64,000 nt of DNA from an uncultured Verrucomicrobiae bacterium (GTDB taxonomy: Bacteria > Verrucomicrobiota > Verrucomicrobiia > Chthoniobacterales > UBA10450): assembly GCA_963726745.1 (NCBI GenBank), contig CAVSDR010000003.1, positions 1,088,001-1,152,000 on the forward strand, written 5' to 3'. Shown in pieces: positions 27,001 to 33,000 of the stretch. The first letter of the stretch is position 1; every line of letters begins with the position of its first letter. A program made the position numbers.

Positions 27001-30000
27001 CTCAAGGACACGGCCAAGGTGCTCGAGGCTTACCATGCGGATCTCATTGTCCTGCGGCACAGCTCCGCAGGCGCCGCGCAGTTTCTCGGTGAACGCCTGC
27101 GCTCGAGCGTGATCAACGCCGGCGATGGCGCGCACGAGCATCCCACACAGGCGCTGCTCGACCTTTACACCATCCGCGAACGCCGCGGCCGCATCGCGGG
27201 ATTACACGTCGCGATCGTGGGCGACATCCTCTTCAGCCGCGTGGCCCGTTCGAACATCTTCGCCCTGCTCAAGCTCGGCGCGCGCGTCACCCTGGTCGGC
27301 CCGAGCACGCTCGTGCCGCGCGTTTTCGAGCGCCTCGGCGTCACCGTCTCGCACTCGCTCGATGACATCCTGCCGACGGTCGATGTGATCAATCTCCTGC
27401 GCATTCAGCATGAGCGGCAGCGGAAGGAATACTTCCCCGGCCTGGGCGAATACATCCGGCTTTTTGGCCTAACGAAGCGTCGCGCGGAGCGTCTCCCGCC
27501 CGAGTGCTTGATCATGCATCCCGGCCCGATCAACCGCGGCGTGGAAATAGACAGCGACCTGGCCGATGGCGCGCAAAGCGTCATCCTCGACCAGGTGACC
27601 AATGGCCTGGCCGTGCGCATGGCCGTGCTCTATCTCTGCGGCGGCATTTCCACCCGATGAAAACTCTCCTGCGCAACGGCCGCATCATCGACCCGGCGAA
27701 CGGCCGGGATGAGATCGGCGACCTCCTGCTGGTCGATGGCAGGATCGGTGACGGCGATCCCGCGGGCGCGGAAGTGATCGAGGCCACGGGGCTGGTCGTC
27801 GCCCCGGGCTTGATCGACATCCATGTGCATTTCCGCGAGCCGGGCTTCGGCTGGAAGGAAACGATCGAATCCGGCGCGCGCGCGGCGGCGGCGGGCGGTT
27901 TCACCACCGTCGTCTGCATGCCGAACACCTCGCCTGTGGCCGACAGCCCGGCGACGATCGCGTGGATCAGGGATCGTGCCGCGGAGGTCGCATGCGTGAA
28001 TGTTTTGCCCTCCGGCGCGATCACGAAAAATCTCGCCGGCGAAGAGCTCGCACCGCTCGGCGCGCTCGCGCAGGCGGGGGTGGTCGCGCTCACGGATGAC
28101 GGCCATTGCGTGCAGAATAACGAGCTTATGCGCCGCGCGGTGGAGTATGCCCGCATGGTCGGCCTGCCGCTGCTGGATCATTGCCAGGATTACCAACTCG
28201 TCGGCGATGGGGTGGTGCATGAAGGCTATTGGAGCACGCTCCTGGGCCTGCCTGGCTGGCCGGCGGCAGGCGAGGAAATGATCGTCGCGCGCAACATCTT
28301 GCTGGCTGAACTCTGCGATCATCAGATCCATTGCCAGCACATCAGCGCCGCGGGAAGCGTGCGATTATTGCGCGAAGCGCGCGCCCGCGGGGTCAAGATC
28401 AGCGGCGAAGTTTGCCCGCACCATCTGGCGTTGACTGACGAAGCGATCCAGAACTTCGACACGAATTACAAAATGAATCCGCCGCTGCGGACGCGCGCGG
28501 ACATCGAGGCGCTGCTCGCGGGTTTGGCCGATGGCACGCTCGACATCCTCGCGAGCGACCATGCGCCGCACGCGAAATTTGAAAAGGAGCGCGAGTTCGA
28601 CCAGGCGCCCTTCGGCATTCTCGGCCTGGAGACGGAGCTGGGGCTTTTCCTCGACTTGCTGGTGCACAAAACCAGGACGCTCGAGCTGCCGCAAGTGATC
28701 GCCATGTTGACGGCTAATCCGGCGCGCCTTTTGAAATTAGCCAGCGGGACGTTAAGCCCCGGCGCGGTCGCCGATGTGACCCTGATCGATCCCGAGCTCG
28801 AGTGGACCGTGGACGCCGGGGAATCAGCCAGCCTCTCGTGCAACACGCCTTTCCACGGCTGGCAGCTCAAGGGCCGCGCGGTGCGCACGATCGTCGCCGG
28901 GAAGACGGTCTGGGAATTGCCCTAGGCCGCGCGTGACCTTCGCGGGCAAAAAAAAGCGCGACCATCGCTGGTCGCGCTGCGGAAGCTAAGGAGATGTTAG
29001 TTTTAGTTGGTGACTCCCAGTTCGCAGGTTCTTCTTTAGCAATGGCGGTGCCACGGCCGCGGCTGCGGGAATCTTTTTCGATAAAACTGTCAACGCCCTC
29101 AGCTTCGATTCCTTGGTATGGACTCAAGCAATAAAGACAAAGCCGAAGGCAAGTTCGACCAGGCCGCCGGCGCGGTGAAGCAGAAGGCCGGTGAGCTGAC
29201 CGGCAACAAGGAGCTCGAAGCCAAAGGCGCCGCGCAGAATGTGGCCGGCCACGTCGAGGAGAAGACGGGCGACGTGAAGAAAGTCTTCGGCAAATAACCG
29301 ATAAAATAAGAAGCGCTGCGTCCCATCCGGAACGCAGCGCTTCGCTTCTCTAGCAGCGGAGCGTGGGTCTACTCCTCGCCGCCGTCGTCGTCGCTTCCAC
29401 CGTCATCGCCGCCGTCGTCACCGCCATCATCATCCCCACCCTCGTCGTCACTGCCGCCATCATCGTCGTCTTCGCCGTCTCCGTCGAAGTCCTGGCCGTC
29501 ATCGTCCGAATCGTCCTCCATGCTCTCCTCGTCCGCGCTGTCGTCTGATTCCACGGATTCATCGCTGTCCTCTTCGACCGCCACTTCTTCCTGCTCTTCC
29601 GCGCTCATTTCGAAGGATTCGGTCTCGGCAAAGCTTTCCTCCGCTTCCATTTCCTCGGTGCTGATCTCCTCGGAGATTTCGATGTCCTCGCTTACTTCGA
29701 GTTCCACCGCGGTTTCCGTTTCGCTCCACTCATAGCTTTCCTCGGTGGTGAACTCGGTGGAAGTCGACTCCCACTCGCTGGTGTAAGTGGAAACTTCGAT
29801 CCACTCGCTGCGGTCGGCGCTGTTGACGTAATAATCGTAGCCGTAAAGCATGCCCTCGATCTCATCGATGAGGTAAAGCGTGGAAGTAAGTGCCGCCACG
29901 GTGAAGGGCGCGTCCACGATCCGACGCGCATCGTGCTTCATTTTCTTGATGCCCTTCAGCAGCGCCTTGTCCTTGCCCGCTTTCTTTTCCATCTGGTCGA

Positions 30001-33000
30001 GCTTCGCGATCAGCGCCTTTTGCTGCGCCTTCAGCTTCTCAAACTCGGCTTTTTCCTTGGCGCTTAACTCGCCGCCTTTTTTCCGGCGCGCTGCTTCCTT
30101 CGAGTAATCCGTCCGCAGGACGGCGAGCGCGTGGCCCATCTTCTTGCTCGCCTCGACCACCTTCTTGTTCTTCGAATCGGTCAGCTCCCAGGCAATGGCC
30201 ATTTGCTTGTCCGCGGTGCGCGCGTCGCTGATCCCGAGGAAGAAATCGTTGCTCTTTGCCTCGAGGCCTTTTTGCGCGCGATCAATCGCCTTGGAAACCT
30301 TTTGCACCGACTTCCAGAACGGCTTGTTCTTCGCCGTTTTCGGATCGAGCCCCTGGTCGGCGCGGGCTTCTTTGATCATAAGAGCCAGCGCTTTGTTCGC
30401 CTTGGTCAGGAGTTCCCTGGCATTCGCTTTCTTGCCGCTGAGCTTCTTCTCCTTCTTCCCTTTCTTGTGCGTCTTTTTCGCTTCGCCGCTCTTGGCTTTC
30501 GCTTCGGCGGCCGCGCCGTGGGCGGTTAGGATAAGGCTGCGTTCCATTCCGAACCCGATGAGCACGGAGCACAGGGCGAGTCGGACCAATAAATTCGATT
30601 TTCGTTTGAGCATGCGCGGCCCACCGTAGCAGACGGGACGCGGTTTACTGCATAATTCGCCGGGCGATGCTCCCGGGCAAAAAATAAGCGCGACCATCAC
30701 TGGTCGCGCTGCGGAAGCTAAGGAGATAAGTTAGATAGTTGGTGACTCCCAGTTCGCAGCTCTTCTTATAGCAGCCACGGTGCCACGGCTTCCGAACCGC
30801 GAGAAAAAACTACGTCTTGCCGGCAAAACTTTCCCACTCGGCGGTCACGCGTTCGAGTTCGGCCGCCACCCCGAGAAGCTCGCGGTTTAACTCCATCGCG
30901 TTTCCTCCGGCGTCGTAGGTTTCCGGCTTTTCCAACTGGGCGGTTAGTTCTTTCTGCCGGCCCTCCAGGGAAAGGATATGCATCTCGAGCTCGCGCGCTT
31001 TTTGTTCGTGCTCGCGCCTGGCTTTCGCTTCGGCCTTGCGCTGCTCGGCCTCGGCCCGGCGCAGTTGTTTCACTTCGCGCAGGCTCAGGTTTTCCGTCGA
31101 AGCGCTCGCCGCGGGTGCTTTCGGCGCGGTCGTCGGTTGCGCATTGCTCAAGGTCGTTCCGCTGGTCAGCGCGGCGCGCGCGGAAGTGGCGCGGGATTTA
31201 TCGAGGTAATAATCGTAGTCGCCCGCGTAGGGCGTGAGCTGGCCGGCGCTGATGTGCAGGACGCTCTTCGCGACGGCGCGGATGAAATAAACGTCGTGGC
31301 TGATGAAAATGAGCGTGCCTTCGTATTGCGCGAGCGCGCCGACGAGGGCGTCGATGCTGCCGATGTCGAGGTGCGTCGTCGGCTCGTCCATCAAGAGGAG
31401 GTTCGGCGGATCCAGCAGCAACTTCACCAGGGCGAGGCGCGTCTTTTCGCCGCCGCTGAGGACGGCGGTCGTTTTGAAAACGTCGTCTCCGCGGAAAAGG
31501 AAGGAGCCGAGGACGGTGCGCGCGGTTTGTTCCGAGACCGGGTTCGGCATGTCGCGCGCGGTGTCGAGCACGGTCATCATCGGCTGCAGCATCTCCACGC
31601 GGTGCTGCGCGAAGTAGCCGATCTTGACGTTGTGCCCGGGCTCGCGCGTCCCGCTTTGCACCGGGAGAACGCCGGCGAGGAGCTTGAGCAAAGTCGATTT
31701 GCCGGCGCCATTCGGGCCGACGAGGACGGTGCGCTGTCCGCGTTCAGCCTCGAAGTCTAACGACTCGTAAACCACGTGCTCGCCGTAGGCGTGGCGCACG
31801 TTCTCGAGCTTGATCACGCGATGCCCGCTGCGCGGCGGCTGCGGGAAGTGAAAGTGAACCGTCTTCTCGCGCGAGACCGGCGCCTCGATCTTCTCCATCC
31901 GGTCGATTTGCTTCAGTTTGCTTTGCGCCTGCGACGCTTTGCTTGCCTTCGCGCGGAACCGATCGGCGAAGGCCTGGAGCGATTGGATTTCCTTCTGCTG
32001 ATTCTTGTAAGCAGCGGCGTGCTGCTCTTCGCGCGCGGCTTTCTGCTCGACGTAGCTGTCCCAGTTTCCGCGGTAACGCGCGAGCCGCTTGTGCGCGATC
32101 TCGATGATCGAGCCGACGAGCTGGTTCAGGAACTCGCGATCGTGCGAGATCATGAGGATCGCGCCCGGATAGCTCTTCAAATATTCCTGAAACCAGACGA
32201 GCGACTCGAGGTCGAGGTGGTTGGTTGGTTCGTCGAGCAGCAACAAGTCCGGCTCCATCACGAGCAGCCGCGCGAGATGCGCGCGCATGATCCAGCCGCC
32301 GCTCAGTTCGCGCGCAGGGCGGTCGAAATCGCTCTCGCGAAAGGCGAGCCCGCTCAGGATCCGTTTCGCTTTCGGCTCGGTCTCCCAGTCGCTGTGCTCG
32401 TCGTAGTCGCCGCAGGCGAGCTTGAGCACGGTTTCCTCGCCGACGCTCGCGGTCTCCTGCGGGAGGAAGCCGAGCGTGGCCGATTTCTCGATCGAGACCT
32501 TGCCCTCGTCCGGCGAGGCCTCGCCGAGGATGAGCGAGAAAAGGGTCGACTTCCCCGCGCCGTTCGGGCCGACGAGCCCGATGCGATCGCCGCGATTCAC
32601 CTGCAACGACGCATCCTCAAAAAGGGTGCGCCCGGCGAAGGCTTTCGAGACTTGGGAAATGGTGAGCATTTTTGCGGGCGGGCAATGTCGCCAGCCACGC
32701 CCGTGGCGCAAGATTGCCGGCTGAAATTGCCGTCTCCCGGAAGCGGCCTTAAGGAAGCGAATGACGCAACGCCTCTTCGCTTTCGCTCTCCTCTGTGTTG
32801 GCGCCGCTTTCGGGAAGGAGCCGGCGAAACCCTTTGATTATCCCAAGCCGCCAACAAGCGAGCAGACCGATGACTACCACGGCACGAAAGTGGCCGATCC
32901 GTACCGTCCGTTGGAGAACGCTGACTCGCCGGAGACGCGCGCCTGGATCGAGGCGGAAAACAAGGTGACTGAGGGTTACCTCAGCCAGGTGCCCGAGCGT

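Follow-up and report, generated by a model that had tools for sequence, protein, structure and literature searches.

The question raised by this locus is what is made, and to what end, from two closely similar elements on the minus strand of a 64-kb window (the whole stretch of DNA analysed). The initial annotation had proposed a new sigma-54-driven small RNA (sRNA) family with three copies in the genome. Both window copies were found where it had placed them (copy A, 30681-30788; copy B, 28949-29056) and share 88% identity across promoter, RNA and terminator (blastn E 1e-31). The count of three was also upheld, although not by the self-blast on which it was said to rest: in our hands self-blast returned only the window copies, and copy C on another contig (C2:245182-245298) was identified with a covariance model (E 2e-10; next match E 0.6). 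Each copy carries a sigma-54 box of the -24/-12 type, followed by a predicted RNA of 80-90 nt with a bulged stem and a G-poor A/C/U loop, and an intrinsic terminator. The features of the locus are listed below, with fold z-scores calculated against 200 shuffles.

27555-28925, plus strand: dihydroorotase-like gene (Pfam), converging on the copy B terminator
28946-29027, minus strand: copy B predicted sRNA, about 82 nt (fold z -3.6; model R2 100.8 bits; terminator scan), with loop 29013-28994 and terminator hairpin 28978-28955
29038-29053, minus strand: copy B sigma-54-type -24/-12 promoter box, by sequence
29118-29297, plus strand: CsbD-like gene (Pfam CsbD)
29310-29343: the unnamed-protein gene's own terminator
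29369-30610, minus strand: gene lying between copies A and B, whose unnamed protein product has an acidic low-complexity tail
30679-30710, minus strand: copy A intrinsic terminator hairpin (GNRA loop) and U tract (terminator scan)
30679-30760, minus strand: copy A predicted sRNA, about 82 nt (fold z -3.8; model R2 97.8 bits), with 5' arm 30760-30746, unpaired loop 30745-30726 and 3' arm 30725-30708, then the terminator
30770-30785, minus strand: copy A sigma-54-type -24/-12 box, a putative promoter by sequence
30810-32666, minus strand: ABC-F ATPase gene (Pfam ABC_tran and ABC_tran_Xtn)

The neighbouring genes offer no constant partner. The ABC-F ATPase gene, which ends 24 nt before the copy A promoter, is the usual upstream neighbour in the genus, but synteny shows no fixed association. 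The unnamed-protein gene (no Pfam match and an atlas match of 0.75 only) lies before the sRNA, after it or is missing in relatives, and the CsbD-like gene, divergent from copy B here, is convergent with the sRNA in most genus relatives. In 70 of 92 sRNA loci the next gene downstream is convergent, often 20 nt or less away, and in only nine does it lie on the same strand within 150 nt, so the element is not a leader; the identity of the convergent gene varies from locus to locus. Copies sit at unlinked genomic sites, the 110-bp unit occupying at least 43 different gene contexts and often beginning less than 40 nt from an upstream stop codon (29/54). The best reading of the element, supported by these comparisons, is the one first proposed: a stand-alone, multi-copy, sigma-54-type sRNA family, whose box decays where the activator described below has been deleted.

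The family comprises about 130 copies in three or four subtypes. The covariance model matches 89/150 family genomes, a wider range than reported initially, and 4/135 other genomes of the order, and the named matches are Verrucomicrobiota, mainly Chthoniobacterales. The earlier genus count of 24/33 becomes 23/33 relatives plus the source genome, and the 23 include one chance match lacking a promoter (G025) and one decayed copy (G021). In a phylum sample, matches of 24-34 bits occurred in 17/150 genomes, none of them strong, and the single one inspected had no promoter; a strict pattern search of viral contigs gave no matches. Rfam 15 returned only 14-23 bits for the window copies, against gathering scores of 37-60, in line with the sub-threshold hits already noted, and at most 30.5 bits (gathering scores 41-46) for seven further loci with diverse copies. 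The predicted sRNA gene of these soil Verrucomicrobia is absent from catalogues so far, with nothing above threshold in Rfam.

The sigma-54-type promoter box claimed for all three copies is borne out by a shared TGGCAY-N5-YTGCT sequence. Pairwise identity is 0.88-0.91 in the promoter boxes and only 0.46 in the spacer, and the -24/-12 box is intact in 124/133 rows read, where the nine counted as non-intact include one wrong-strand row and one weak match that is probably no family member. At least one copy with an intact GG-N10-GC box is present in 93/96 genomes. A strict box occurs 14 times in this genome against about 7 expected, so a single box alone is little proof; box, box-to-stem spacing, stem and terminator are, however, kept jointly across the family and in four genomes of other families. 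The sigma-54 rule would place the start of the transcript some 12 nt beyond the -12 GC. This predicts RNAs of 77-98 nt (median 86) across the family and about 81-83 nt for the window copies, a small correction to the 85-95 nt first suggested.

The genome encodes rpoN and six enhancer-binding proteins, every one with a helix-turn-helix. A search of 43 contexts for a shared upstream motif (k-mers and dyads, 250 bp each side) left nothing surviving multiple testing, and the IHF consensus was found near 0/92 loci (250 bp each side). The palindrome upstream of the activator's own gene, searched as a matrix, occurred upstream of the sRNA in 4/83 cases, as in 4/83 control windows, and inside it in 0/83. 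For a sigma-54 promoter the failure to find a shared enhancer or IHF site counts as a difficulty.

The candidate activator is an orphan response regulator of the NtrC family, whose gene lies immediately upstream of rpoN (C6:974672-976042). No adjacent kinase gene was seen, and none of the 25 best NCBIfam models reached its cut-off with this protein. Of 99 genomes with a completeness of 90% or more, this activator and pilC are both missing in 13. Eleven of these belong to one genus, which has sRNA matches in 0/13 genomes and keeps rpoN in 12/13 and KhpA in 13/13. In the other two (G021 and G133) the rpoN neighbourhood is intact and the activator deleted or reduced to 52 residues; the box and 3' arm of the G021 sRNA have decayed, and G133 retains only a paralogue without the -24 element. 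Activator and pilC are thus jointly absent in three separate lineages, counted as three loss events, each with the sRNA absent, promoter-decayed or reduced to a box-less paralogue. An intact box is present in 77 of the 78 genomes in which the activator match is full and a copy was read. Loss of the sRNA alongside activator and pilC appears well supported by these genome comparisons, the link resting on the three loss events.

Other observations bear on this link. Activator and pilC are kept without an sRNA match in 22 complete genomes, and G063 (83% complete) combines an activator with only a decayed sRNA copy. Five complete genomes have sRNA and activator but no pilC match, so the tie runs to the activator more than to pili. 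Three sRNA-bearing genomes have only four enhancer-binding proteins each, which excludes PrsR and one other as the activator. The pilC gene has a sigma-54 box in 41/41 genomes read, and no enhancer common to its promoters is visible in the 110 bp examined, so the enhancer gap is not peculiar to the sRNA. Strict boxes number 25 in 11 activator-less genomes and 157 in 23 others, a weak deficit because the reversed pattern used as a control had counts of 50 and 150 and because 9/11 of these genomes are from one genus.

Support for the closing stem comes from covariation. RNAalifold did not predict it from the genus alignment including the promoter, and stem-only sub-fragments cut inside the arms did not fold better than shuffled sequences (z 0.1 and -1.1). 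Two-sided changes occur in 4/18 pairs among 24 genus copies aligned without the model, and in 17/22 pairs among 84 family copies aligned to it, an alignment that leans toward structure. The initial figure of 4/22 pairs had understated the covariation. The terminator, as claimed, is a hairpin with a U tract in both window copies; over 84 copies it has two-sided changes in 6/9 pairs and a GNRA loop in 72. Arm sequence is kept beyond the need for pairing, with two nearly invariant G-C pairs and an almost fixed 3' arm against which the 5' arm changes register. The arms are spaced 19 to more than 30 nt apart and the bulge is one-sided. In 45 short-type copies loop identity is 0.58, against 0.48 from composition alone and 0.78 in the arms, while in 15 L2-type copies the loop is conserved like the arms (0.84), which would fit a seed too. 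Loops are 40% A and 10% G, largely unpaired and enriched in UCAC, CUAA and UAAA, word counts that come from related, non-independent sequences.

Our preferred reading, in which we place about even confidence, is that the sRNA acts in trans as a protein-binding decoy within a sigma-54 regulon that contains the pilus. Protein binding is preferred to mRNA pairing because the short-type loop is barely conserved beyond what its composition gives, the loops are A-rich and unpaired, no target rises above shuffles and the arms are kept beyond pairing. In a first step, well supported by the comparisons above, sigma-54 polymerase would transcribe the sRNA when the rpoN-side regulator is active, and pilC and the pilins are probably under its control too, which would place the sRNA in one regulon with them. 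The 5' end would then pair with the stretch before the terminator, as covariation suggests, so that a protected, bulged stem holds a 20-30 nt G-poor loop open. Stem and loop may finally form a docking site for a protein that binds single-stranded RNA and is titrated away by it, as in CrcZ or GlmY; mRNAs whose leaders are likewise A/C-rich and free of Shine-Dalgarno sequences would then change in translation or stability, and additional copies would raise the dose.

As to which protein might be bound, the 94.7% complete genome gave no match to Hfq (PF17209), and none was found in it to CsrA (PF02599), RapZ, Ro60/TROVE (PF05731), ProQ or a cold-shock protein. This leaves ribosomal S1, KhpA/KhpB or an RRM protein as candidate partners, and KhpA, KhpB and three RRM proteins are present in the genome. 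KH domains prefer A and C. They recognise four single-stranded bases (10.1101/2023.10.30.564711). Neither RRM proteins (36/36 genomes) nor KhpA (137/151) track the sRNA, as both occur in genomes without it; co-occurrence with rpoN, RRM or KhpA is uninformative, all being nearly universal.

Regulation by base-pairing, in the way of Qrr, MmgR or FopS, is rather unlikely. Here the loop, or a 3' arm freed by stem opening or loop cleavage, would pair with mRNAs, aided by KhpA/B or an RRM protein. The conserved L2-type loops and the almost fixed 3' arm would suit such a role, the weak Rfam matches fall on terminator-proximal CUCC seeds (ncS025, suhB/MmgR), and multi-copy mRNA-pairing sRNAs that bind an RRM protein are described in Bacteroides (FopS/RbpB, PMC11697453). 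The target searches nevertheless gave no standout mRNA for any of the three copies in this genome. Among 3084 gene starts the best loop partners reached -17.4 (A), -16.1 (B) and -20.2 (C) kcal/mol, and shuffles did better in 7, 6 and 10 of 12 cases; the scans covered one genome, with approximate gene starts and energies that take no account of target accessibility, so genuine but weak targets could escape. RRM-gene leaders were rejected, the 10-nt complement present here not being kept in relatives and only 2/33 pairs of loop and own-genome leader beating 98/100 shuffles. The csbD leader was set aside as target or mimic, as the common word sits in the promoter spacer and is not conserved, and pilin leaders (80 loci, 57 leaders) came within 1 kcal/mol of shuffles. 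Anti-Shine-Dalgarno action is also unlikely, since Shine-Dalgarno-like words are found before no more than 10% of 1315 starts, compared with 7% in a control stretch, and the sRNA arm mostly reads UUCC.

More doubtful still is that the sRNA is a leader mimic, an AUG-free copy of an A/C-rich, Shine-Dalgarno-free start region (that of pilin, pilC, groEL and atpA in this lineage) that would titrate its reader, whether S1/30S, KhpA/B or an RRM protein. The pilC leader ranks first of 3089 leaders in this genome for likeness to loops A and B, but over 29 genomes pilC mimicry fails, with scores of 5.8 for the own leader, 5.6 for other leaders and 5.8 for shuffled ones. Part of the pilC leader match lies upstream of the probable start.

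We think it improbable that the unit is a feedback RNA binding sigma-54 holoenzyme or activator, or an inverted repeat acting in DNA as a downstream activator site. It moves among many contexts close behind stop codons with no shared upstream site, is lost or decayed along with the activator and keeps its stem sequence beyond pairing need, yet the variable arm spacing and one-sided bulge fit RNA and not a dimer site. The palindrome before the activator's gene is moreover neither in nor near the sRNA gene, pilC promoters too lack a visible shared enhancer, and a normal 6S RNA is encoded elsewhere. A cis role, as a short transcription unit or shared terminator insulating or interfering with a convergent neighbour, has a slimmer chance again: a convergent gene does usually follow, but it differs among loci, stem and open loop covary though a terminator needs neither, and copies appear at unlinked sites. 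That the element is untranscribed or non-functional, just a conserved terminator preceded by a word that resembles a promoter by chance, or that it encodes a small peptide, is scarcely credible despite the number of strict boxes in the genome, given the joint conservation of box, spacing, stem and terminator, closed sense ORFs of at least 8 codons in only 17/83 copies, and AUG in 2/84 loops against 17 in shuffles.

The sRNA would mark out a sigma-54 regulon that includes pilC and the pilins and is seemingly run by one rpoN-side activator with no visible shared enhancer, and the 110-bp unit would be a compact reporter for it. In a genome without the classic sRNA proteins, it is also a ready bait for the protein doing that job in the phylum. 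The family is well enough defined to be modelled for Rfam already. Chthoniobacterales are common soil bacteria, and no description of RNA regulation in them was found in the literature searched. Were the leader-mimic reading true, the sRNA would be a decoy for non-Shine-Dalgarno translation initiation, switched on by a sigma-54 activator that runs the pilus programme with no enhancer, and within that literature it would be the earliest case of a regulatory sRNA system described for these soil Verrucomicrobia.

Among known systems, the arrangement resembles PilS/PilR-RpoN control of type IV pilin (PMC6058289) in that an NtrC-family response regulator is associated with sigma-54 boxes at the pilin and pilC genes; here, in contrast, the activator adjoins rpoN with no adjacent kinase gene seen, and its targets share no enhancer. 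A CsrB/RsmY/RsmZ-type CsrA decoy can be rejected, as CsrA is unmatched, the lone GGA is paired and GG occurs in 6/84 loops, and so can a bacterial Y RNA, as Ro60 is unmatched. The sRNA is not 6S RNA, which lies at a separate locus (C4:179365-179546): it forms no rod of about 180 nt with a central bubble and does not match RF00013. A CUCC-like word and GC-rich terminator produce the 18-30 bit matches to suhB/MmgR (RF00519), Burkholderia ncS025 (RF02869) and the betaproteobacterial toxic sRNA (RF02278), far under gathering scores of 41-50; in the present family the word lies in a paired region and is UUCC in the majority of copies.

Other parallels are found among small regulatory RNAs. CrcZ has extra paralogues, like the present family. 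CrcZ/CrcY of Pseudomonas are described as an RpoN- and CbrB-driven Hfq decoy (PMC4063720), similar in the sigma-54 promoter under a two-component activator and in unpaired A-rich stretches resembling the start regions of target mRNAs, but CrcZ is 407 nt with six A-rich sites, against 80-90 nt and one loop here. With Hfq unmatched, a single loop and no Rfam match, a CrcZ-type Hfq decoy is rejected. GlmY also has a sigma-54 promoter. In enterobacteria it is reported to be a RapZ decoy (PMC7073468), likewise a short structured RNA read by protein through a stem-loop. No RapZ match, Rfam match or glmS link was found, which sets GlmY/GlmZ aside. Qrr needs Hfq and has a conserved seed, whereas here Hfq was not found and the short-type open loop is the least conserved part. 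Qrr1-5 of Vibrio, as described (PMC10162802, PMC3352281), are multi-copy, base-pairing RNAs under sigma-54/LuxO, comparable in size, promoter class and intrinsic terminator. FopS/RbpB of Bacteroides thetaiotaomicron pairs paralogous sRNAs with an RRM protein as global RNA binder (PMC11697453), and three RRM genes are present here; FopS as described there differs in its single-stranded conserved 5' seed, lack of a closing stem and promoter class, and shows no sequence match. Set beside sigma-54-driven trans-encoded sRNAs as a class, the family shows no upstream activator or IHF site in the 250 bp searched on each side and has a box at fixed distance, rpoN with enhancer-binding proteins in the genome, and its own terminator in place of a leader position.

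The window carries two direct repeats of 110 bp on the minus strand, at a spacing of 1732 bp. In each, about 11 nt separate a TGGCAY-N5-YTGCT box from the first arm of a stem; a G-free loop of 20 nt and a bulged complementary arm come next, and the 3′ part is a GC-rich hairpin, capped by a GNRA loop, and then a U tract. Placed by the known sigma-54 spacing, the RNA would start at the stem base.

30681-30788, minus strand: copy A of the small RNA gene, beginning 24 nt downstream of an ABC-F gene
between copies A and B: one unnamed gene and one csbD-like gene
28949-29056, minus strand: copy B, which stops about 20 nt short of the stop codon of a dihydroorotase-like gene that converges on it

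A covariance model built on 24 genus copies recovered the third copy proposed in the initial annotation (C2:245182-245298, E 2e-10), and with this model no further copy in the genome fell below E 0.6. A CCT-N15-CGWAT-like promoter is common to the csbD genes (here at window 29060-29118, plus strand; 17 other loci). It lies some 8 nt upstream of the start codon, which suggests that the gene is leaderless and controlled by an alternative sigma factor.

The copies belong to a real, conserved and uncatalogued small RNA gene family that, judged from its sequences, is very probably transcribed and functional. Rfam again gave only sub-threshold matches, as first reported, and no description of the family was found in the accessible literature on Verrucomicrobia or Chthoniobacterales small RNAs, RNA motifs and pilus-regulon RNAs. 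By blastn 23 of 33 genus relatives are matched, one by chance, against the earlier count of 24 of 33. With a second covariance model, trained on 84 copies, matches were found in 89 of 150 family genomes (64 of 98 when at least 90% complete), each having 1 to 4 copies, and in 14 of 135 order genomes outside the family, four of these strong (61-95 bits); a phylum sample of 150 genomes gave no strong match. We also searched named genomes, some of whose records overlap the training set, with a permissive pattern of promoter plus arm: among the matches listed (80 loci), 23 of 24 Verrucomicrobiota-labelled loci, mostly Chthoniobacterales, score 63-105 bits and none of the 56 loci without this label exceeds 23 bits. 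The match is absent from entire genera (0/13 and 0/5 genomes), and the RNA is therefore dispensable.

When the 24 genus copies were aligned without a model, 94.7% of cells pair and two-sided changes occur in 4 of 18 named pairs. On this alignment RNAalifold returned only the terminator and, in the promoter, a spurious hairpin, and it missed the closing stem, probably owing to a register shift of part of the 5′ arm between subgroups. In 84 model-aligned copies 17 of 22 pairs have two-sided changes, more than in any of 500 shuffles or any slid control, in an alignment biased towards structure, yet with 4 pairs outside the model used for aligning; the covariation earlier put at 4 of 22 pairs is present and larger in extent. 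The two helices are separated on the 3′ side by 1-3 nt in 79 of the 84 copies. Short-type RNAs make up 45 of the 84, and two long types have about 10 additional loop-side bases. Members of a small paralogue group (L359, L371, L396, L397) retain stem, loop and terminator, have lost the -24 element and may depend on another sigma factor. In one relative, two identical long-type copies flank a single gene at a distance of 1773 bp (L088, 1501-1617 and 3274-3390), a spacing that resembles that of copies A and B; this relative also has a tandem short-type pair (L021, 1508-1785).

This genome contains rpoN and six enhancer-binding proteins, while three RNA-bearing genomes have only four each, which, by labels assigned from neighbours and best matches, are orthologues of its rpoN-adjacent, glmM-adjacent, NtrC-like and ZraR-like proteins. 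Of 151 family genomes, 122 have a match to the rpoN-adjacent activator; in a genus without the RNA the count is 0 of 13. A full match is missing from nine RNA-bearing genomes, of which seven were read: four break at contig ends, one is frameshifted, and in two (G021, G133) the activator is deleted or cut to 52 residues in an intact rpoN neighbourhood; the two unread genomes also have no rpoN in their assemblies. Among the seven, exactly G021 and G133 have no intact-box copy, that of G021 being decayed and a box-less paralogue being the sole remaining copy in G133. Where a full activator match is present and a copy was read (78 genomes), just one genome has no intact box. The association (2/2 against 1/78) has p ~0.001 by hand and 0.0008 for the approximate table, and calls for caution as it rests on three loss events. 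Unpublished genomes (G007, G008, G009, G035, G039, G046, G158) were included in alignments or tallies; none is among these events and no claim depends on them alone.

All 41 genomes read for it have a sigma-54 box at the orthologue of the type IV pilus gene pilC, and this orthologue is absent from the same three lineages as the activator. Among 99 complete genomes, 56 have RNA, activator and pilC, 22 activator and pilC with no RNA match, 13 neither activator nor pilC, and 5 RNA and activator with no pilC match, with 3 other combinations. Further boxes in this genome lie upstream of a major pilin gene, dnaK, a prepilin-like gene and the genes of several proteins that are small or secreted. These losses and boxes most likely place the RNA in a broad sigma-54 regulon that contains the type IV pilus, and the rpoN-adjacent activator probably controls the RNA. 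A search for a common enhancer was negative both around the RNA and, over the 110 bp read, upstream of pilC.

The box at dnaK (C3:1079739, plus strand) is sigma-54-like, and a sigma-54-type box precedes a DUF4032-like gene of 77-82 residues (window 25803-26110, plus strand). Major pilin genes (C5:155052-155144, L421; L466-L545) have a sigma-54 box with an A-tract element immediately upstream, and their 55-75 nt leader combines a conserved hairpin with a long run rich in A. In many genomes a long-type RNA lies 8-30 kb from pilC, which may be plain synteny (C3:67554-68777 here, and long-type loci in relatives). Directly before the activator gene, 20 genomes carry a TCTCA-N4-TGAGA-like palindrome, repeated two or three times and probably an operator (C6:976043-976100, L106; L306-L332).

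Regarding its mode of action, the likeliest reading, to which we give an even chance, is that the RNA is a protein-binding decoy; such a decoy may look like a leader. Low Shine-Dalgarno use in this genome, the scarcity of leaders with as much A and as little G as the loops (24 of 3090 genes, among them what we take, by recognising the sequences, to be groEL, atpA and pilC) and the rarity of AUG in loops fit this proposal; the pilin leader also ranks high for loop likeness. Against it, loops and leaders may both simply be selected for unpairedness in a 64% GC genome, likeness to single leaders mostly stays inside what shuffles of those leaders reach, none of the candidate proteins tracks the RNA, and L2-type loops are conserved in sequence. 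Pfam searches of this genome, which is 94.7% complete, did not find Hfq, CsrA, cold-shock domain, ProQ, TROVE or RapZ; it encodes three RRM proteins, KhpA, KhpB and one PUR-domain protein. KhpB makes mainly backbone contacts to single-stranded RNA of at least 7 nt (PMC12408800), and in Fusobacterium, without Hfq, CsrA and ProQ, small RNAs are bound by KhpA/B (10.1101/2023.10.30.564711; 10.64898/2026.10.12.757534). The PUR-domain protein (PurA, 72 residues, C6:970330-970548, L422), two kb from rpoN, is a further candidate single-strand RNA binder. The two small RRM-protein genes (C6:899814 and C6:97600, minus strand; L031, L032) have a conserved leader, roughly 100 nt long, in which common blocks recur across the 32 leaders read (L152-L181 included). 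This leader has no Rfam match, occurs also in genomes without the small RNA and is a candidate new cis-regulatory RNA.

The main rival, base-pairing with mRNAs, seems less likely. Loop composition is 40% A, 26% C, 24% U and 10% G, with a mean unpaired probability of 0.72, and short-type loop identity is 0.58 against a shuffle value of 0.48 (0.78 for the arms); the short-type loop is conserved in composition and openness and not in sequence, the opposite of what is expected of a seed. Pairing of the three loops with 3084 gene starts was no better than that of shuffled loops, and no target stood out in a helix scan that counted the cost of opening the RNA. None of four specific target ideas survived extension to relatives. 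The RNA is not a leader of the next gene (nearest downstream gene convergent in 70 of 92 loci by a simple gene finder, neighbours varying over 43 contexts), nor, by its reading frames, does it appear to be a peptide gene (closed sense frame of 8 codons in only 17 of 83 copies).

For the proposed decoy our model is CrcZ, an RpoN-driven decoy imitating target start regions (PMC4063720). The family acts like the known sigma-54 small RNAs, yet belongs to none of them.
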